Shown: positions 1,371 through 41,894 of the stretch, piece by piece
Numbering within the stretch: position 1 is the first letter of the stretch
How the letters are laid out: the number at the start of each line of letters is the position of its first letter
Assembly (NCBI GenBank): GCA_002347965.1
Contig: DDYN01000057.1
Span: 11,365-75,364 of the forward strand
Direction: 5' to 3'
DNA length: 64,000 bases
Origin: Nitrospirae bacterium UBA2233
GTDB lineage: Bacteria > UBA2233
Notes under the pieces: model-generated
What the model was told of the DNA's origin: nothing
Seen by the model: only the letters and a program-made list of their open reading frames with translations
Databases searched by the model: none
Position numbers and translations under genes: made by a program

Positions 1371-3068
1371 TCATTTCGGTGCCTTTCGGTAAGCAACGCT
1401 CCGTCCACGTTCACCTTCGCGAACGACAAGACCTTGCTGTGCCAACCGATCGAGCAGCCGGTAGGCTTGCGGGCCTGTAATCCGGCACAACTCCGTCGCC
1501 TCGCGCCGGGTGATCCGTCCGTGCTTTTCCACGTACTGCAATACCATCTGCTCCTGCTGTAGCGGCTCGAAGCCTCGCTGCCGAACGTAGCCCGCCTTGT
1601 CGTCCAGCAGACGATAGAGCGCCGCGGACAAATGCCATGTGCGGCCTTTCTTTTGACCGCGCTCTTCCACCAGACCCGTCTCCACCAGGCGGTGCAGCAC
1701 GCCGCGCCCGTCGGATTCCGGCTTCTGGACGAGCCGGGCCGCCTCCTCGGTGGTCAGTTCGCGCGTTTGCCACAAGGCGTTGAGGATAAGTAGTTCGTCG
1801 AGCGCAAGATCGCGCCCTTGCTGGGCTTCGGTGACCAGTAACCGCACGAAATCGAGATTGGCCGCTCCACCCGGGATAACGACGCTTACCGTGGCTTCGT
1901 TGCTGCGTGCGTAGGACGGCGCCGGACGGCCGTTGCGCAACTGTTCATAGAAGATGGTGTCGATGCCGCGCGCGGTGCGCTCGACGATGCCGGCGCGCTT
2001 GAAAGCGTCGGCGAGCAAGGGGTTACGCGGGCGTGGCGCGGTGACGAGCAAGTTATCCAGCCGCACGCCTTCGGGAAAGCCGCCGGGGTTGGTGATCTCG
2101 ATGTGATCGCTGTACCACTGAAAATGCACGGCTCCTAGGCGGAGATAGTCGCGGTGGATGAGCGCGTTGGCCAGCGCTTCGCGCAGGGCGCGCTCGGGAT
2201 AGTCCGGCACACCCACGCGCAGCAGCCCGACCATCAGCTCCTGCTCGCGATTGCGCGCGCGGATGCGCGCTTCGATCTCCTCCACGACTCGCAGGAGAGG
2301 CCAGCGAAAGAAATCGTTGACCTCCACGTCGAGCCCGCGCAGCACCTGGAACGCGACTTCATGCGCAGGGACGAAGCGGCGCAGCGCATCTTCCTTTCCA
2401 AACAGCAGCAGCGCCGCGAGGCGCACGCCGTACACGCTGCCATTAGCCTCCACCACGCCCAGCGCCTTGGCGAGCTCCAGATCCGGCAGCACTAGCAGGC
2501 TTTCGTCGCTGCGGCCACGCCGCTCGCGTACGCTGCGCCGGAAGCGCTCGAACTCCAGAGGGTCGAGGTTCTCCCAGCGCGCCTCGGCGACGAGTTGAGC
2601 CGATGGATCGAGCAACCTCCGGCCGGATTGCAGCGACTGTACGGCGTAGGCGTCCATCGGCACGCAGGCGGGTTTGCCATCACCGCCTATCACGCGCCGC
2701 AGAAACACACCGTCGGCAGTCGCCACCGGTTGCTGCTGGGGCGGTATTTCGATGACCAGTACCGTCGCATCGTTCACCTTCACTGTTTGGACTTGCACCG
2801 ATAAGGAAGGTCGGGTACGACTCGCGACCAGGGCAGCAAGCCGGTCAAGATCAGTGGTTGTGCCGTGTCTGGGGTGTGCGCCGGTGATCCGGCCATCATC
2901 CTCGACGCCAATGAGCAAACGACCCGGCTCGCCGTCGGACCTGTTGGCTAAGCATGCGACAGCCTCAACGAGGTCACGGTCGTTAAGCGAACAGCGCTCC
3001 TCGCCCTTGAACTCGACAGCCAGTGTTTCACCCCTCGTAATCAGGCGCTGAAGTGCATCGGGTGTCAT
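1371..3068 (-). CDS. Schlafen/AlbA_2-like putative DNA-binding domain + HATPase_c_4 (RecG C-terminal-like ATPase) + two winged-HTH protein (COG2865-like), embedded between hsdM and hsdS
   Basis: 565-aa ORF. The N-terminus LAVEFKGE...DLVEAVACLANRSDGEPGRLLIGVEDDGRITG matches the AlbA_2/Schlafen fold. The C-terminus carries HTH-like segments (LLILNALWQTRELTTEEAARLV; HGRITRREATELCRITGPQAYRLLDRL). It is co-oriented with hsdM and hsdS and tightly spaced. Confidence 0.65.
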   Translation of the reverse strand: MTPDALQRLITRGETLAVEFKGEERCSLNDRDLVEAVACLANRSDGEPGRLLIGVEDDGRITGAHPRHGTTTDLDRLAALVASRTRPSLSVQVQTVKVNDATVLVIEIPPQQQPVATADGVFLRRVIGGDGKPACVPMDAYAVQSLQSGRRLLDPSAQLVAEARWENLDPLEFERFRRSVRERRGRSDESLLVLPDLELAKALGVVEANGSVYGVRLAALLLFGKEDALRRFVPAHEVAFQVLRGLDVEVNDFFRWPLLRVVEEIEARIRARNREQELMVGLLRVGVPDYPERALREALANALIHRDYLRLGAVHFQWYSDHIEITNPGGFPEGVRLDNLLVTAPRPRNPLLADAFKRAGIVERTARGIDTIFYEQLRNGRPAPSYARSNEATVSVVIPGGAANLDFVRLLVTEAQQGRDLALDELLILNALWQTRELTTEEAARLVQKPESDGRGVLHRLVETGLVEERGQKKGRTWHLSAALYRLLDDKAGYVRQRGFEPLQQEQMVLQYVEKHGRITRREATELCRITGPQAYRLLDRLAQQGLVVREGERGRSVAYRKAPK

Positions 3069-5555: not shown

Positions 5556-6329
5556 GTGGCCTCAAAACTGTCCTCTAAGGTGCAGCTTATTGCCATAGAC
5601 TTAGATGGGACGCTTCTTGACGGGGAAGGATCCCTCGATGCAGCGGCCTTGCCCCTTATTTCTAGCATCTTGAGCAGGGGGGCCTGTGTAACCCTGGCTA
5701 CAGGCCGCGACCCCCATAGCGCAACTCACTTAAGCAGGCCGATCACATGGAGCGCCCCGCTCGTGACCTGCAACGGGGCCGTTCTTTGGGATGTCGGCCG
5801 GCAAAGGCCTTTGATTAAGCGCACAATTCCTCTGGAGGCCGTCCGAAGCTGTCTTGGCTGCCTTCCAGAGTTTGGGCTTGTGCCTTTTGTCATGGAAATC
5901 ACCGCAGACCTCCGCTTCGTCGTCCGGCCAACAACCCAAGACGACAACTTCCACGAAGTCGTCAAACTCTACGCCTCCGGCGATGTTGCCAGCGTAGAAT
6001 CGGCCAAGGCCGAAATCAAGGCGCTCTTGGACGGCACCATTTACACGACCTCCTCGTTCCACGGCAACTTGGAGGTTTGTCCGGCGGGTGTAAGCAAGGC
6101 CTCCGGCCTGGATTCCGTGGCCAAGGCGTTGGGGATCCTGCCCGAAGAAATCGCCTGCATCGGCGATGGAGAGAACGACCTCGAGCTTTTTGGCTACGCG
6201 GGAGTCCGCGTTGCGATGGGGAACGCAATCGAGCCGCTCAAGGCCATGGCGGACTTCATTGCGCCCGCCAATACCGAGCATGGCGTGGCGGCGGCCCTCG
6301 CTTGGATCTTGTCGGCAACACAACCGTAG
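5556..6329 (+). CDS. Cof-type HAD-IIB family hydrolase (sugar-phosphatase-like)
   Basis: IAIDLDGTLL motif I near the N-terminus and IGDGENDLELFGYAGVRVAMGNA motif IV at the C-terminus. Confidence 0.8.
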   Translation: MASKLSSKVQLIAIDLDGTLLDGEGSLDAAALPLISSILSRGACVTLATGRDPHSATHLSRPITWSAPLVTCNGAVLWDVGRQRPLIKRTIPLEAVRSCLGCLPEFGLVPFVMEITADLRFVVRPTTQDDNFHEVVKLYASGDVASVESAKAEIKALLDGTIYTTSSFHGNLEVCPAGVSKASGLDSVAKALGILPEEIACIGDGENDLELFGYAGVRVAMGNAIEPLKAMADFIAPANTEHGVAAALAWILSATQP

Positions 6330-6436
6330 AATTTTCTCCTAGCCCCTGTTTCCCGTCTTTACGACAACCATCTCGAAGGGAGTATCCCGTGCTCATACAA
6401 AACGTAAGGTCGTCCGGGCAAAACGGAAACGACCTG

Positions 6437-9400
6437 ATGTCTAGGCTTACCTCTAACGCGCTGAAAGTTTTAGAAAAACGCTACCTGAAAAAAGACGAAA
6501 CAGGAAACGTTGTCGAGACACCATCCGAGCTCTTCGGGCGCGTGGCCGGAGCGATCGCCCAAGCCGAGGAGATATACGGGAAAGACCCGGGGGATGCCTA
6601 TCCAAGGTTCCTCGAACTCCTGACATCGCTTGATTTTCTCCCGAATTCGCCCACGCTGATGAACGCGGGCAGGCCTTTGGGCCAACTTAGCGCCTGCTTC
6701 GTCCTCCCCGTGGAAGACTCGCTGAACGGCATCTTCGAGACGGTGAAGCACGCCGCCCTGATCCACAAATCCGGCGGCGGCTGCATTGCCGGCGATGCTA
6801 GGGTCTGGAGCACGTTTTGTGGGCTGGAGCCTATCGAAGTGCTGTTCCATCGGACCACGGCGGACGGCCGCCCGGGCATCCGTCGCGGTTTTGGCGTCGC
6901 TTATGACGTGAACGACCTCAACATTCAGACCGCGGCCATGGACCCCGCCACTGGGTCCATGGGGTTGCGCAAGGTTACCCATGTCTGGAAGTTTGATGTC
7001 CCGGCTGCAGATCAAATGACGGTCCGAACGCGCGAGGGCACGGTCATCCAGACTAGCGCCTGGCATCCGTTCATGGTGCTGCGGGATACTGGCTTTGCCG
7101 AAGTCCGCGCTGATGAGCTCGCGCGAGGGGACGTGATCCTCGGACCGGACCGCCCGGATTCCTACTGGCCATGGTCTGAGTACCGTACGGCAGGCACTCT
7201 GACGATCGACCCCTGGATGGGCTGGCTCATCGGCTTTACCTTGGGCGACGGGTCGTTTGACTACGTGCCCTCTCTGAGGCAGTACAGGGTGCGTTGGTTC
7301 TCCGGCACCCGCGACGTGCTGGAGCGCGTGCAAGAGGTCCTGGCCTCGAGGGACATTCACGTCGCCATCCAGCGGGACAACCGGAGCACAGAAAGCTTTT
7401 TGCTGACTACCCTGTCTCAGCGGTTCGTGCATGACCTGCTGGAAGCCTGCGGGCTCGGCGCAATCGGCGTCAAGGAGGACCACATCCGGGTTCCAGAGGC
7501 TATCGCCAAGTCGCCCCTGCCGGTCGTGCGCGCGTTCCTTGCCGGGCTTCTGGACAGCGACGGCTACGTCGCCAAGGATGGCAGTCCGTCCTACTCCACG
7601 ATTTCGGAAGAGTTTGCCCAGGACTTGGCCGCGCTTGCCGCCCTGATGGGCTACCGTCCCACGGTATCCAAGGAGAACCCGCGGGGTAGGGGAAAGCGGG
7701 CGGTGTTCAACGTGCAGGTCTGTCCCCTGCCCCAAGTCCTGCAACTCGCCGACGACCTGCAAGTCTACCTGGCCAACCGCTTCCGGCTCGCCCGGCTCTC
7801 CACGGAGAGCACAAGAGAAACCGCGCTGCGACTCCCGTTACGGGCCTGGCGTGACCGGATGGCGGAGCTGGGGCTGGTCCGGCTAAGGGGTGATAAGTCA
7901 ACCGGACCCGGATCCTGCGCCGTAGAGCTTAAGCGATGGTCCTGCAACGCCAATCATCGCTGCCGCCGCGATGACCTGCGCACCATTGCCTCGCAGGTGC
8001 GGCTCCAAGACCCGGACCTGGCAGCGCTCATGGAGCGTGTCGCGGCACGCGGCCAGGAAATTGCTCGTGTAGGGCGGGCGACAACGCCCAAGCCCTACTA
8101 CGACCTTTCCGTGGAGGGTTGGAACACGTACGCTGCCGGACAGTCTGGCCTAGCCATGGTCCACAATACCGGGTTCTCCTTCTCGCGCCTAAGGCCCGAA
8201 GGAGACCTCGTCCACTCGACCAAGGGGGTGTCCTCCGGCCCGGTCTCGTTCATGGGCGTGTTCGATGCCGCGACCGACACGATCAAGCAAGGGGGGACAA
8301 GGCGCGGTGCGAATATGGGGATACTTAGGGTCGACCACCCCGACATCGAAGCGTTCATTGTCTGCAAGCGCGACGGCAAGCGGTTTCAGAATTTCAACAT
8401 TTCCGTAGCCATCACGGATGCGTTCATGGGGGCACTCGAGACGGGTGCCGAGTACGCGCTGATCAACCCCAGGGACGGCAGCGTCGTCCGGATGGAGAGT
8501 GCCAGGCGTATCTTCGAGCTTATCGTCGAGAACGCCTGGGCTACGGGAGACCCGGGCATCGTTTTTATAGATAGGGTAAACGCCAAAAACCCGACGCCCC
8601 ATGCGGGCCAAATCGAGAGCTGCAACCCCTGCGGCGAGCAGTTCCTTTTGCCCTACGAGTCCTGCAACTTGGGCTCGATCAACCTCTCCAACTTTGTCAA
8701 GGACGGCCGGATTGACTTCGGTAGGCTCCAGGGGGCCGTAGGGACCGCTGTCCATTTTCTGGACAACGTGATTGACATGAACCGCTACCCGCTGGAGGAG
8801 ATTTCCAGGGTAACGCTCGCGAACCGCAAGGTCGGGCTCGGTGTGATGGGGTTCGCCGACATGCTGATCCTTCTTGGCGTGCCCTACGACTCCCGGAGGG
8901 CGCTCGAGATCGCCGGCGAGGTGATGGGCTTTATCCACGAGGAGGCCGTCTTGGCATCCCGAAAGCTTGCCAAAGATCGAGGGCCTTTCCCCAACTTTGA
9001 AGGGAGCGTTTACAGCATCCCCCAGCGCAACGCGATGGTTACGACCGTCGCGCCGACGGGGACGATCAGCATCATCGCGGGGTGTTCTTCCGGAATCGAG
9101 CCTCTGTTCGCCGTCAGCTACGTTCGGAACGTGCTTGACGGCCATAGGCTGATCGAAGTGCACCCGGAGTTTGCGCGGATCGCCAAAGAGCGTGGGTTTT
9201 ACTCCGAAGCGCTCATGGAGAGGATCGCGTTCGAGGGTAGCGTTGCGCACGTCGAGGAGGTTCCAGAAGACGTGCGAGGGCTGTTCGTGTGCGCCCACGA
9301 CATTCCATCGGAACAGCATGTAAGGATGCAGGCGGCCTTCCAGGCGCACGTGGACAACGCCATCTCCAAAACGGTGAACTTTCCGTTCGAAGCGCCGCCG

Positions 9401-10003
9401 GAAGCCGTCGAAAAGGTCTACCTTTTGGCCTGGGAACAGGGCTGCAAGGGGGTAACGATCTACAGGGACGGCTCTAGGGAAGCCCAGGTGCTAGAGACGG
9501 GTAAGACGCGGGTTGTACGAGAGGGCGGGCAAGCGCCGCTAGTCCAAGCCAGACCAGCCAAGCGCAAGCGCCCCAAGGTCCTCAATGGGACGACGATCCA
9601 GATGGATACGGGCTGCGGACCGATGTACGTGACGATCAACGAGGACGAGCGGGGGCTATTCGAGCTGTTCAACACGATCGGAAAGGCGGGTGGCTGCGCG
9701 GCATCACAGTCCGAGGCGATCGGCCGTCTGGTATCGCTCGCCTGGCGGAGCGGGATTCCTGCGGAAGAAACCACCAAGCAGCTTATCGGAATCCGCTGCC
9801 ACAAGCCCGTCGGGTTTGGGGACAATCAGATTACCTCGTGCGCCGATGCTATCGCGAAGGCCGTTCTTACGCACTTGGGGGAAGACAAACACAAATATCA
9901 AGACCCTCCATCCTACGGTGCCTGCCCCGAGTGCGGAGGTACGCTCGAGCCAAAAGAGGGCTGCGCGACTTGCAAAGAGTGTGGATATTCTGAGTGCGAA
10001 TAG
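6437..10003 (+). CDS. nrdJ: Adenosylcobalamin-dependent (class II) ribonucleoside reductase NrdJ, intein-containing. Start chosen at [17 protein letters not shown]; an in-frame GTG at 6389 with a stronger SD is an alternative start
   Basis: N-extein ...[24 protein letters not shown]...IHKSGGG and C-extein [33 protein letters not shown]... reconstruct the class II RNR GGGTGFSFS core. The C-terminal Cys-rich tail CPECGG...[12 protein letters not shown] is present. The track ORF 6077..10003 includes a spurious 5' extension overlapping the HAD gene. Confidence 0.9.
   Translation: [1188 protein letters not shown]
6782..8167 (+). mobile_element. Intein (462 aa) with two LAGLIDADG-type homing-endonuclease motifs, inserted in the NrdJ GGG^TGFSF active-site region
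   Basis: Begins with Cys (CIAGDARV...) immediately after GGG and ends ...LAMVHN before Thr+1. Internal motifs are [11 protein letters not shown] and [11 protein letters not shown]. Confidence 0.85.
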
Positions 10004-11057: not shown

Positions 11058-11507
11058 GCCGTCTCCTCCTTTTAGGTTTATCGGTCCACGTACGCAAAAA
11101 ACTCGCTGCCATTATACTACGGCCAGGCGTGTCCTTCAAGCATGCCAATCGTGCGTTATCGCTCGGAAGCGATCGGGGGTTAGTCCCCATCCTCCGCCAC
11201 CCGAGGCATCGGCAAACCCGGCTAGCAACCCGAGCGGCACAAGGAAGCATCGGATAGGTTTGTCGCCGCCCGGCAGCGTGGAAACCCGGCGTGGAACGAG
11301 AAACTGGACAAAAAGGTATCCGCCCGAAAAAATAAGAGCAGGGCCGTAAAGGGCCATTCTTCCAGAGTGCGATCTATTTTATAATTTACAGGTAAACGGC
11401 CAAGGGCTTGTGTCAACGTGCCTAAGGGTGGTTTCATGATAAGAAAGGCTCTTTTTATGACGCAACCGAACGGCGTGATCCCGTGATCCAAAGGAGAGAC
11501 AAAGCCC

Positions 11508-16670: not shown

Positions 16671-17831
16671 TCAATACTCCTCGAGGAGGTTTTTATAGCG
16701 ATCAAGACGCTCGATGAGCTCGCCCAGCGTATCGCCGCCCAATTTCTGAAGGTAGGCATCCGCCAAAACGAAGGCGACCATTGCCTCGGCCACGACGCAC
16801 ATCGCGGGCACGGCGCAAGTATCCGAGCGTTCGATCTCGGCGGGTTCCGGCTGCTTGGTTCTGACGTTCACGCTCGGGAGAGGGTTCATGAGAGTGGCGA
16901 TCGGCTTCATGAAGGCGCGTACAATCAGCTCTTCTCCCGTCGTCATGCCGCCTTCGAGGCCGCCGGAACGGTTTGTCTTCCGATAGAACCCCTGCTTTTT
17001 ATCGAAGAAGATCGCATCGTGCACCTCCGACCCTTTTTTTTCGGCCGCTTCGAAGCCTTCGCCGATCGCGACCGCCTTAATGGCCGGGATACTCATCAGC
17101 GCCCGAGCGAGCCCGCCATCGAGCTTCAAGTCCCACTGGACATGGCTGCCGAGGCCTGGCACGAGGCCGAGCACCCGGACTTCGGCCACGCCGCCCAGCG
17201 TATCGCCGTCTTTTTTGGCCTGCTCGATCGCCTCGATCATGTCCGTCTCGGCGTTTGGGTCTATGCAGGCTACTTCCGAAGCAAGCGCCCTTTGCCAGTC
17301 GGCCTCACTTAGGGTTTGCTTGCTTGGGGCCTTTGCCTTTCCGATCGACAGAACATGGCCCAGCACGCGAACGCCGAGCGCTTGAAGGAGCAGCTTGCAC
17401 AGAGCGCCGACGACGACCCTCGCTGCCGTCTCCCTTGCCGAGGCCCGTTCTAAGATGTCGCGAAGCTCGTGCGTGTGGTATTTGAGCCCGCCCGCCAGGT
17501 CTGCATGGCCTGGCCTTGGACGGGTAACGGCCCTTTTGTCCGTTTGTTCGCCGAACGGGGCCATGGCATCCTGCCAGCTCTGGAAGTCTTCGTTCTCGAT
17601 GCTCACGGCGATCGGAGATCCTAGGGTTTTGCCGAACCGTACGCCCGAGAGGAACTCGGGCGTGTCCGATTCTATCTGCATCCTCCGTCCCCTTCCGTAA
17701 CCTCCCTGTCTGCGCTTGAGCTCGGAGCGGACCCGTTCATTCTCGATGGGCAGCCCTTTAGGCATCCCATCCAAAATGACGACGAGCCTCTTGCCGTGCG
17801 ATTCTCCGGCCGTAAGAAACCGAAGCCCCAT
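16671..17831 (-). CDS. aroC: Chorismate synthase
   Basis: MGLRFLTAGESHGKRLVVILDGMPKGLPI... full-length AroC signature; TGA stop. Confidence 0.9.
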   Translation of the reverse strand: MGLRFLTAGESHGKRLVVILDGMPKGLPIENERVRSELKRRQGGYGRGRRMQIESDTPEFLSGVRFGKTLGSPIAVSIENEDFQSWQDAMAPFGEQTDKRAVTRPRPGHADLAGGLKYHTHELRDILERASARETAARVVVGALCKLLLQALGVRVLGHVLSIGKAKAPSKQTLSEADWQRALASEVACIDPNAETDMIEAIEQAKKDGDTLGGVAEVRVLGLVPGLGSHVQWDLKLDGGLARALMSIPAIKAVAIGEGFEAAEKKGSEVHDAIFFDKKQGFYRKTNRSGGLEGGMTTGEELIVRAFMKPIATLMNPLPSVNVRTKQPEPAEIERSDTCAVPAMCVVAEAMVAFVLADAYLQKLGGDTLGELIERLDRYKNLLEEY

Positions 17832-40068: not shown

Positions 40069-40108
40069 CCTTCTTGTTTTTCGCAAGCAACGCAAGGTGG
40101 GGCATTTT

Positions 40109-40138
40109 GGAGGGTTACACGGCAAACCTCCATTTTTT
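40109..40138 (+). terminator. Rho-independent terminator of pfkA (GGAGG...CCTCC stem followed by TTTTTT)
   Basis: Read from the sequence. Confidence 0.6.
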
Positions 40139-40165
40139 AACAAGACAACGTTGAACCTTACAACA

Positions 40166-40194
40166 CGGGGCACGGAAATGTGAACCGTGCCCCG
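40166..40194. terminator. Perfect 10-bp stem hairpin (CGGGGCACGG-aaatgtgaa-CCGTGCCCCG) between convergent pfkA and the rhodanese gene; likely terminator for the minus-strand gene
   Basis: Read from the sequence. Followed on the minus strand by UGUUGU. Confidence 0.45.
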
Positions 40195-40224
40195 TGAAAA
40201 CGGCTGGTGCCTATTATCCGCCCA

Positions 40225-41517
40225 TCAATAAACCACGGGGAACCCGGCGGCCGTCCAGTTGGTCGTCCCGCCGATTAAGTCGTACACCTGCGTGAAGCCC
40301 TTATCGATGGCCATCATGGAAGCTTCCGCCCCCCTTGGCCCGTTGGCACACACAAAGCAGATCGGGGCGTTCTTGTCGAGCTCGCCGGAATCCAAAAACT
40401 GCTCGACGTCCTCACCGAGCTCGTGGAACTGGATCTTGGCAATATGCAGCCCGTTGTACTCGAGCGCACTGCGTACGTCCACGACGGTTAGGTTCGGATC
40501 CTCTCGCCATTTCTCGTAGAGTTGGCTTGCGATCCAAGAGTGCATGTACTTGCCCTGGATCCAGCCCGTATTGGCGTAGTTGACGATTCTGTTGACCATC
40601 TCGATCAACGTGGGCCCGAAGTTGGGCGCTGGTACCCAGTTTTCGGAATCCGGCGTAGACCCGCCGATCGCCCGGTTGATGCCGGCGGCCCTTCCTTGAA
40701 CGCCAAGGAACGTGTTCAGCGTTTGCTCGGCAAGAGCTTGGTCTTTGGTGTTGACGATTTTTGCGGATTTTTTGAAAACAAGGTCCGGATAGGCATCGGC
40801 TAGGCTAGGAGCGCTTTGGTAGCCGAAGGCATCCTCTGACTGGGCCACAATTTGGCCTTTTTGGTAGACAACCGGCGCTTGACCCTTGGTCACATCAACG
40901 CCTTGCAAAGACAAGGGCATGCCGGCCCCGATCCATTCTCCGATGCCTGAATTCAGGTAGTAAACGTTGTCGTAACCATACGTAACCGTATGGTAGCCCG
41001 CTACAAGGGCTCGAATCCCTCAAGCACAGATGAGAATTTCTGGCTTGTCGGGGTCGAGCCTGCCCGATTTCACGAACTCGTCGTACTCAGAAAGCGGGAC
41101 GTTGATAGAGCCCGGGATGTGCATGCCGTCGAACTCGGCCTTGGAGCGTATGTCAACGATCTGAACCTCTTGGCTTGACATCATCCTGCGCATCTGGGCC
41201 GCCGTTACCGGGTTTGCCGTTACGCCCTCGAGCTTTAGCTGTAAGGGCGGAATCGCGCCCTCCATCCAGTAGCGCATGCCTCCCATCAGGTACATGAAGA
41301 ACGCGCCCACGTCGGTCGTGGCGATCTGGTTGGGCGTGAAGGAGAACATGTTGCCCGCCAAGGGCACGAACAAGTCGGCCATCGGCTGGGTCAAGCCCCG
41401 GACCATCAAGTCGTTCCTCGTTACCTCGTGGGCGTTTGCTTTGGTCCCCACAAACGGGGCTGCGCTAAAGATAAGCGGCAGGCCTAAGGCCAGCGCCTTG
41501 AACCATCGCTTTCGCAT
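40225..41517 (-). CDS. Secreted two-domain rhodanese-like sulfurtransferase whose single reading frame is interrupted by an in-frame TGA at 41020-41022 (+ strand coordinates) inside the first CX2GXR loop; pseudogene, recoding or sequencing error
   Basis: Track ORFs 41020..41517 and 40225..40920 are in the same frame. Manual translation across the gap reads ...PEILICA*GIRALVAGYHTVTYGYDNVYYLNSGIGEWIGAGMPLSLQG... Domain 2 has an intact CANGPR loop. Confidence 0.6.
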
Positions 41518-41546: not shown

Positions 41547-41678
41547 CTACACCAGGCTTGTCAGCGAGGTGCTGGTAGCCGGGAAAGAGTTCGACAAAAG
41601 ATGCACGAACGCGTTCAGAAAGGCATTTAAGAGCTCGCTCAAGAGTCCAGGGTCGATCGGGGCAGGTTGGAATCCCAT
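41547..41678 (-). CDS. Small 43-aa peptide (MGFQPAPIDPGLLSELLNAFLNAFVHLLSNSFPATSTSLTSLV), second gene of a two-peptide operon
   Basis: ATG at 41678 preceded by AAGGAGG at 8 nt; TAG stop. Confidence 0.45.
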   Translation of the reverse strand: MGFQPAPIDPGLLSELLNAFLNAFVHLLSNSFPATSTSLTSLV

Positions 41679-41685
41679 AGAAAAC

Positions 41686-41826
41686 CTCCTTATTTCAGCC
41701 CATTAAACTAGTAATCGGGCTCGTCAAAAACCCAGAGAGCTGATCGCTCACACCAAGAAGCCCGGGCAAGCTCGGGGCCAGGTTGTTGACGAAGAACTCG
41801 TAGACCGTGTTCAGGAACTCGGCCAT
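41686..41826 (-). CDS. Small 46-aa peptide (MAEFLNTVYEFFVNNLAPSLPGLLGVSDQLSGFLTSPITSLMG), first gene of a two-peptide operon
   Basis: ATG at 41826 preceded by AAGGAGGTG at 7 nt; TGA stop. Paralogous to the peptide downstream and to the 91-aa gene at 31370..31645. Confidence 0.45.
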
Positions 41827-41865: not shown

Positions 41866-41894
41866 AGCATACTAAAATTGCACGTTTCTGTCAA
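41866..41894 (-). promoter_or_regulatory. Sigma70-type promoter (TTGACA-17 nt-TATGCT) driving the two-peptide/rhodanese operon
   Basis: Minus-strand read: TTGACAgaaacgtgcaattttagTATGCT, about 35 nt upstream of the first peptide ATG. Confidence 0.5.

Follow-up and report, generated by a model that had tools for sequence, protein, structure and literature searches.

Five forms of rhodanese selenoprotein are distinguished in a 2026 review, of which form 3 is the NF041203 family, with selenocysteine (Sec, U) in a CxU motif; the entry 'COG0607 form 2, CxU' of a 2022 review is the same form. Olavius symbionts have a UxU form, and MccSep has been shown to reduce polysulfide in a Sec-dependent manner. 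The gene described here lies on the minus strand of a 64,000-nucleotide stretch (the window) of contig DDYN01000057.1 from the assembly GCA_002347965.1 of Nitrospirae bacterium UBA2233, positions 11,365 to 75,364. It encodes a tandem rhodanese, and its reading frame is crossed by a single in-frame TGA in the active-site loop of the first domain. As judged from comparisons of orthologs and of the RNA downstream, this UGA is very probably a Sec codon and the gene a genuine, unannotated selenoprotein gene, which would bring to the few CxU rhodanese selenoproteins an exported member with two domains and a distinct structure.

The proposed Sec site resembles that of NF041203 (rhodanese_LYCAU, example TKB26178.1), in that Sec is placed at +2 after the catalytic Cys, in L-I-C-A-U here and in L-Y-C-A-U there, and Cys-containing homologs occur in both. 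The NF041203 model matches domain 1 of the window protein at 59.2 bits and that of its Cys-containing ortholog P0001 at 69.6 bits. By sequence, the window protein stands outside the curated family, because such scores are under the cutoff of 115 bits and because the model covers just one domain, of ~126 aa, whereas the window protein has 430 aa, a candidate signal peptide, two domains and a CxxC motif in domain 2. The Sec site itself appears to be of one kind in both, set here in another architecture. PGAP-type models would give the window protein no name, and its gene family, unlike NF041203, is linked to a Psr/Phs-like operon. The UxU and UxxG rhodanese-related selenoproteins from Olavius symbionts and the Sargasso Sea demonstrate that the catalytic and the +2 positions of the loop can be Sec; there Sec replaces the catalytic Cys, whereas the window protein keeps that Cys and would have Sec only at +2.

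Two further systems are similar in setting. Sud, the polysulfide-sulfur transferase of Wolinella succinogenes (PDB 1qxn), is likewise an exported rhodanese fold (export of the window protein is predicted by eye), is similar to domain 1 in both sequence (E = 1e-7) and fold, and is coupled, functionally or genomically, to a molybdoenzyme of the polysulfide/thiosulfate-reductase type, as the window's gene family appears to be. Sud, however, forms a homodimer of 137-aa, single-domain subunits that have one Cys and lack Sec, in contrast to the tandem window protein with its proposed C-A-U loop, and the putative partner enzyme of the window's family is PhsA-like by a sub-threshold score only. The MccSep/ExtKL multiheme selenoprotein polysulfide reductases and the Geobacter ExtH rhodanese also belong to periplasmic chalcogen respiration in which Sec does S-Se chemistry, and ExtH-like and ExtM-like genes neighbor the window's gene family. 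The former are a cytochrome family in which Sec is not in a rhodanese, though, and the Ext models match the neighboring genes at sub-threshold scores only.

In the original prediction, made from the letters of the window, two listed open reading frames (ORFs) were claimed to be one continuous frame, with the TGA at +2 after the catalytic Cys of a rhodanese loop. Both claims hold. A single 430-codon frame runs unbroken from 41517 to 40225, with one internal stop, at codon 166, and a terminal TGA; the Pfam match spans the internal TGA, and reading through it gives ...PEILICA[TGA]GIRALVAGYHTVTYGYDNVYYLNSGIGEWIGAGMPLSLQG... A strong Shine-Dalgarno sequence, AAGGAGGA, lies 5 nt ahead of the ATG at 41517. 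Gene callers split the frame into ORFs of 165 and 231 aa, and the NCBI, JGI and ENA entries accordingly consist of a 165-aa 'hypothetical protein' and a 231-aa 'rhodanese-related sulfurtransferase'. Under the selenoprotein reading these two entries are therefore one misannotated gene, and the public databases most likely list one selenoprotein gene wrongly as two fragments, a recurrent misannotation that this work would correct. As had also been foreseen, TGA is a genuine stop elsewhere, for example at aroC (16671..17831). There is no global reassignment of TGA in this genome, because TGA ends 12 of the 24 confident genes in the window; a scan of the 64 kb for other TGA-interrupted coding frames gave no credible case.

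The Sec reading is favored because orthologs carry Cys at exactly codon 166, because the TGA and the frame persist across deep divergence under purifying selection, and because a hairpin of the selenocysteine insertion sequence (SECIS) type follows the TGA. An alignment of orthologs at the TGA position had been proposed as a check, and it gave Cys in two alleles and TGA in six. These eight distinct alleles derive from 16 fetched loci (L001-L014, L101 and L102). The TGA alleles are those of the window (shared by L003-5), L002, L006, L007, L010 (shared by L011-13) and L101 (shared by L102), and they come from about a dozen contigs in independent metagenome assemblies, including a German oil-field metagenome. 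The Cys alleles are L001, with TGC, and L008/L009, with TGT, and each of these codons is one base from TGA. The full-length ortholog P0001 has 432 aa, is 88% identical and reads C-A-C-G-I-R in the loop, and the public clusters contain five full-length proteins (P0001, P0228, P0230, P0232 and P0245), each with Cys in the same C-A-C-G-I-R motif. The split public entries, of which there are more than 30 vs these five, all stop at ...ILICA.

Constraint on the protein is seen on both sides of the TGA, with dN/dS (the ratio of nonsynonymous to synonymous substitution rates, by the Nei-Gojobori method) of 0.06-0.25 in every allele pair. The TGA alleles differ from one another by dS of up to 0.65 and carry at least three local haplotypes, and no secondary stop or frameshift occurs in the ~264 downstream codons of the six; five of them read to the terminal stop, and L006 ends 7 codons short of it at a contig end. 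The most divergent allele, L101, comes from a lineage with 39% GC (58.6% for the window) and has 58% protein and 62% DNA identity to the window gene, and it keeps the TGA at codon 166 and an intact frame through domain 2. Recombination among the alleles is evident from L001 (Cys) and L007 (TGA), which were obtained from two samples of one study. Their adjacent molybdenum (Mo) enzymes are 99.8% identical, and dS between the two alleles is 0.35 upstream and 0.006 downstream, a mosaic pattern that indicates recombination and a Sec/Cys polymorphism inside one population.

The protein family is small. Apart from the split L101 pair, an exhaustive HMMER search of 1.84 billion representatives brought up generic rhodanese-domain proteins and no further full-length relative that is close. 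A P0001-based scan of the genome contigs found no relative, and a homolog search with the L101 protein gave nothing new, the L101 clusters being unnamed singletons. Public sequence clusters of the gene are named 'Nitrospirota bacterium'; MenB was of no use for placing the organism, its identity being about 81% to many phyla. The nearest genome in GTDB is a fragmentary metagenome-assembled genome from the Wietze oil field, 'Nitrospirae bacterium WOFB21', with 93% identity in PilB; the next relative has 43%.

Two adjacent hairpins follow the UGA and together reach -18.9 kcal/mol (z = -3.4). The second had been predicted as CCAUACG-GUUA-CGUAUGG at 40993..40976; it is present and spans 40994..40975 with an extra A-U pair. 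The other predicted hairpin, GUAGC-GG-GCUAC, has to be given up, in that its 2-nt loop is impossible and it is lost in other alleles (GUA to ACA); a stem of AGCCC and GGGCU around 7 nt is conserved instead. A published model of the bacterial SECIS (bSECIS) specifies an apical loop of 3-9 nt on a stem of 4-16 bp, a G in the first two loop positions that is usually followed by G or U, a distance of 16-37 nt from UGA to loop, and a minimum free energy of -7.5 kcal/mol or lower (PMC13188914). A bSECIS check downstream of the TGA had been suggested, and hairpin 2, with an apical loop (40986..40983) that begins 33 nt past the UGA, fits this model in all four respects. A simplified scan took in the 1379 TGA trinucleotides of the window; 5% of them pass the bSECIS model and 16 (1.2%) reach -11 kcal/mol.

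Conservation of the hairpins exceeds that of the surrounding gene. Synonymous variation among the seven high-GC alleles falls to its lowest level in the gene at codons +1 to +21, with 1-2 variants per 15 codons vs a mean of 8.5. Between the window and L101, 12 of the 13 codons for conserved residues at +4..+17 are identical, vs 36% gene-wide (binomial p = 3e-5), and hairpin 2 is the best-conserved 39-nt stretch of the entire gene (38 of 39 nt). None of the 13 base pairs varies, and the 11 variable columns of the 63 nt that follow the codon all fall at unpaired positions (hypergeometric estimate ~0.001). Codon bias is no explanation for this invariance, because the stem codons are minority ones (CAT 0.34, GTT 0.20, TAT 0.20 and GGT 0.08). 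The comparisons thus argue that an RNA-level constraint acts after the UGA. In the proposed mechanism, SelB carrying Sec-tRNA(Sec) would bind the conserved stem-loop, and the recoding core, the 8-bp GUUA hairpin stacked on the 5-bp hairpin, would cause the ribosome to read UGA as Sec. The product would be a single 430-residue protein, exported to the periplasm, whose domain 1 has C164-A-U166 in its active-site loop. With both Sec and Cys alleles occurring in nature, and with a 37-nt proposed recoding element frozen across a 20-point GC difference, the gene could serve as a system for the study of Sec/Cys exchange and of SelB-SECIS recognition beyond model organisms.

The domain structure fits a single protein. 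Pfam Rhodanese (PF00581) matches at 112 bits, vs a gathering threshold of 22.2, in two stretches, and the layout consists of a candidate signal peptide, an N-terminal region of ~70 aa and two rhodanese domains with a linker of ~120 aa; the N-terminus of L101 resembles the candidate signal peptide of the window protein. An AlphaFold model of the Cys ortholog has pLDDT (predicted local confidence) of 87-97 across both rhodanese domains, and Foldseek and sequence searches match rhodaneses, including Sud. In this model the C-X4-R loops follow strands in both domains, C-A-U-G-I-R after strand 160-163 and C-A-N-G-P-R after strand 388-391, with residue 166 between strand 160-163 and helix 167-179. 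The 33 codons between the TGA and the next ATG are conserved at the protein level and complete domain 1 (helix 167-179, strand 185-188 and helix 191-197), and by the model neither split product would hold the whole of domain 1. The loop of domain 2 is C387-F-V-C390-A-N-G-P-R (40359..40333); its C-A-N-G-P-R, at 40350..40333, is intact, as the original prediction had it. The CxxC motif of domain 2 overlaps the catalytic Cys and is invariant in all alleles, including L101 (VVFVCANGPRG). The two loops suggest that both domains carry a two-chalcogen redox pair.

Several observations weigh against the Sec reading. The stems are supported by invariance only, with no compensatory changes among the eight alleles, and the 33-nt spacing is close to the upper end of the model range. 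No Rfam SECIS family matches, either at gathering thresholds on the window, where only three tRNAs are found, or at permissive E-values on 40930..41060, where the sole match is a meaningless 15-nt plastid one. The hairpins are equally conserved in both Cys alleles and so are not specific to TGA alleles, which could reflect a recent Sec-to-Cys conversion or another role of the hairpins. Given the mosaic alleles, some of the low dN/dS among TGA alleles could predate the TGA. None of selA, selB, selD and tRNA-Sec is present in the 64-kb window or in ~15 kb of flanking sequence; both flanks were walked and contain type I restriction-modification, ABC, FtsEX-like, protease and RNase HII genes. Reports of selB/selC in some Nitrospirae, by contrast, favor the Sec reading; the selC* tRNA-Cys is also reported in some Nitrospirae. 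The window locus lacks the Mo operon found beside the gene in relatives and has a convergent PFK gene instead (40069..40224 vs L007 10703..15230), and the functional model given below is drawn solely from gene context and homology. Lastly, every sequence-level observation, including the conserved frame and the hairpin, would fit equally well if the SECIS-like element recoded UGA as Cys, by a selC*-type tRNA-Cys with a UCA anticodon, or if near-cognate readthrough occurred, in either case to give a full-length protein without selenium. Such selC* tRNAs, some with a second SelB, have been reported in anaerobes that include Thermodesulfovibrio and Nitrospirae-like contigs, and the alternate alleles do carry Cys. 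This outcome is nevertheless quite improbable: the selC* system is rare and was found in the cited work alongside the full Sec apparatus, CxU rhodanese selenoproteins are already an established class, and it is hard to explain why a costly UGA would be kept over TGC or TGT across deep divergence.

The original prediction had left five options uncommitted. Sec insertion has gained support from the Cys orthologs, the selection and the hairpin; error, pseudogene and reinitiation are contradicted. A nonsense pseudogene would require that a TGC/TGT-to-TGA null was spread by recombination and inherited its low dN/dS from functional Cys forms. The single-base step between these codons and the clearly mosaic alleles (as in L001 and L007) would allow this, and the Mo operon beside the gene is gone from the window and from L002, the latter retaining just a 176-aa fragment of the Mo enzyme, upstream on the opposite strand (2150..2680). 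TGA alleles, however, are in the majority among public sequences and on several haplotypes, their downstream codons are clean, the hairpin is ultra-conserved, and the TGA is found with the frame and both domains intact in a lineage at 58% aa identity and a 20-point GC difference, such that this explanation is also very unlikely. Gene decay following loss of the Mo-enzyme partner is rejected as well, since TGA alleles adjoin intact Mo operons. Slightly less probable still is a genuinely split gene, in which an exported 165-aa N-terminal fragment and a separately initiated cytoplasmic 231-aa protein would both function. Purifying selection on both halves and the two ORFs listed by gene callers are in keeping with it, as is an in-frame ATG (MPLSLQ) 33 codons downstream, and the weak GGAGA that had been noted before this ATG (40920..40918) is indeed present. 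The GGAGA is 16 nt away from the ATG, though, and the restart is not conserved, as Gln takes the place of Met201 in L101, whose own Met lines up with window Ile196. Moreover, the intervening 33 codons belong to the domain 1 fold, the C-terminal piece would have no signal peptide, and the Cys alleles are unsplit. A sequencing or assembly error, an a priori possibility only, is refuted by independent assemblies and has a negligible probability: L003-L005 (ENA ERZ27315072, JGI 3300001580 and JGI 3300035454), three assemblies from different samples, are 100% identical to the window over 1.65-1.7 kb, TGA included, and the same TGA recurs in five further diverged alleles.

A function for the proposed selenoprotein is suggested by the operons of its relatives. 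In L001, L007 and L010-13, the gene is followed by genes for an 845-aa PhsA-like molybdoenzyme, an iron-sulfur (FeS) subunit and a cytochrome b and, further downstream, by a Rieske/cytochrome b pair and then an ExtM-like multiheme cytochrome. In L008/9, the gene comes after a PsrA/NrfD/FeS set and an ExtH-like rhodanese, and in L101 a Mo enzyme with a twin-arginine translocation (TAT) signal is encoded downstream. The PhsA-like Mo enzyme scores 279 and 501 bits, under the PhsA cutoff of 694. Presence of the downstream PhsA-like Mo operon varies by strain; at the window locus the rhodanese is accompanied by two small ORFs and has a promoter-like site of its own as well as a terminator-like repeat, and in the window strain the gene may act with a partner encoded elsewhere. 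Two neighboring products match models of the Geobacter selenite/tellurite-reduction operon below cutoff, the ExtH-like rhodanese of L008 (1101..2531, minus strand) with 168 bits against 200 and the ExtM-like cytochrome of L007 (16770..18155) with 167 bits against 800.

Because the gene in relatives sits directly upstream of a PhsA/PsrA-like molybdoenzyme, analogy suggests a Sud-like periplasmic carrier of sulfane sulfur. Cys164 of the protein would take up sulfane sulfur from polysulfide or thiosulfate, or perhaps selenium species, and hold it as a persulfide. Sec166 would act as the more reactive nucleophile or as the resolving partner, to form a selenenylsulfide (Cys-S-Se-Sec), and the sulfur would then be handed to the PhsA/PsrA-like molybdoenzyme encoded beside the gene in most relatives. 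A CxU member beside a respiratory Psr/Phs-type molybdoenzyme points to a testable role of selenium in how uncultured, oil-associated Nitrospirota move sulfur (or selenium) in the periplasm. A wider and rather speculative proposal is that the Sec/Cys polymorphism is maintained in one Nitrospirota population, with the C-x-U selenenylsulfide catalyst or carrier feeding sulfane sulfur or selenium to the Psr/Phs-type molybdoenzyme, the allele tracking selenium availability, and the two-hairpin SECIS acting as a lineage-spanning SelB ligand.

Table 1. Positions of the tandem-rhodanese gene, its proposed recoding site and adjacent elements in the window
Feature	Position	Strand	Remarks
Tandem-rhodanese ORF	40225..41517	-	430 codons including one UGA; orthologs with Cys are called as a single protein of 431-433 aa
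In-frame UGA, proposed Sec166	41020..41022	-	Codon 166, +2 of catalytic Cys; loop C-A-U-G-I-R
Cys164 codon (TGT), canonical rhodanese catalytic Cys of domain 1	41026..41028	-	Aligned to the active-site Cys of solved rhodaneses
Hairpin 1, AGCCC-(7 nt loop)-GGGCU	40995..41011	-	nt 12-28 from U of UGA; -7 kcal/mol; no variation in the stems, variable bases confined to the loop
Hairpin 2, proposed SECIS core, ACCAUACG-GUUA-CGUAUGGU	40975..40994	-	nt 29-48; 8-bp stem; -11 kcal/mol; invariant in 8 of 8 alleles
Candidate Sec-type (export) signal peptide, residues 1-29	41431..41517	-	By eye: MRKRWFK, hydrophobic core, A-N-A cleavage motif
Rhodanese domain 1	40930..41205	-	Residues 105-196 by Pfam, match crosses UGA; AF2 pLDDT 87-94 for residues 101-205
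Rhodanese domain 2	40228..40545	-	About residues 325-430
Small ORF, 43 aa, conserved, MGFQPAPIDPGLLSELLNAFLNAFVHLLSNSFPATSTSLTSLV	41547..41678	-	Directly upstream of the rhodanese
Second small ORF, 43 aa, conserved, MAEFLNTVYEFFVNNLAPSLPGLLGVSDQLSGFLTSPITSLMG	41695..41826	-	Upstream of the first
Promoter-like site, TTGACA-17-TATGCT	41866..41894	-	Consensus match only; precedes the small ORFs and the rhodanese
12-bp perfect inverted repeat, CACGGGGCACGG / CCGTGCCCCGTG, 9-nt loop	40164..40196	.	Between the convergent rhodanese and PFK genes; terminator-like

The inverted repeat between the rhodanese and PFK genes is probably a bidirectional terminator. It was seen in the sequence and was not reported by the terminator scan, which allowed loops of 3-8 nt. 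The two 43-aa ORFs are paralogs, and every high-GC locus that extends far enough upstream has them immediately ahead of the rhodanese, except that in L008/L009 a single 45-aa ORF takes the place of the pair. In the 39% GC lineage, a 42-aa homolog, MGIQLAPIDPELLGQLLNAFFQMFIHFMSNSFPTASGSLGSI, lies upstream of the rhodanese (L101 750..878). The small ORFs have no NCBIfam match; by their sequences they are a conserved small-protein family.

Elsewhere in the window, the class II ribonucleotide reductase gene (6077..10003; see L095 3066..6680) contains an intein with a LAGLIDADG homing-endonuclease domain, as found by Pfam on an identical contig. AAA_21/DUF4276 genes are interleaved with a type I restriction-modification system to the left of the window (L095/L096 11695..18138), and this system adjoins a gene with an SLFN/AlbA_2 domain at window positions 1371..3068.

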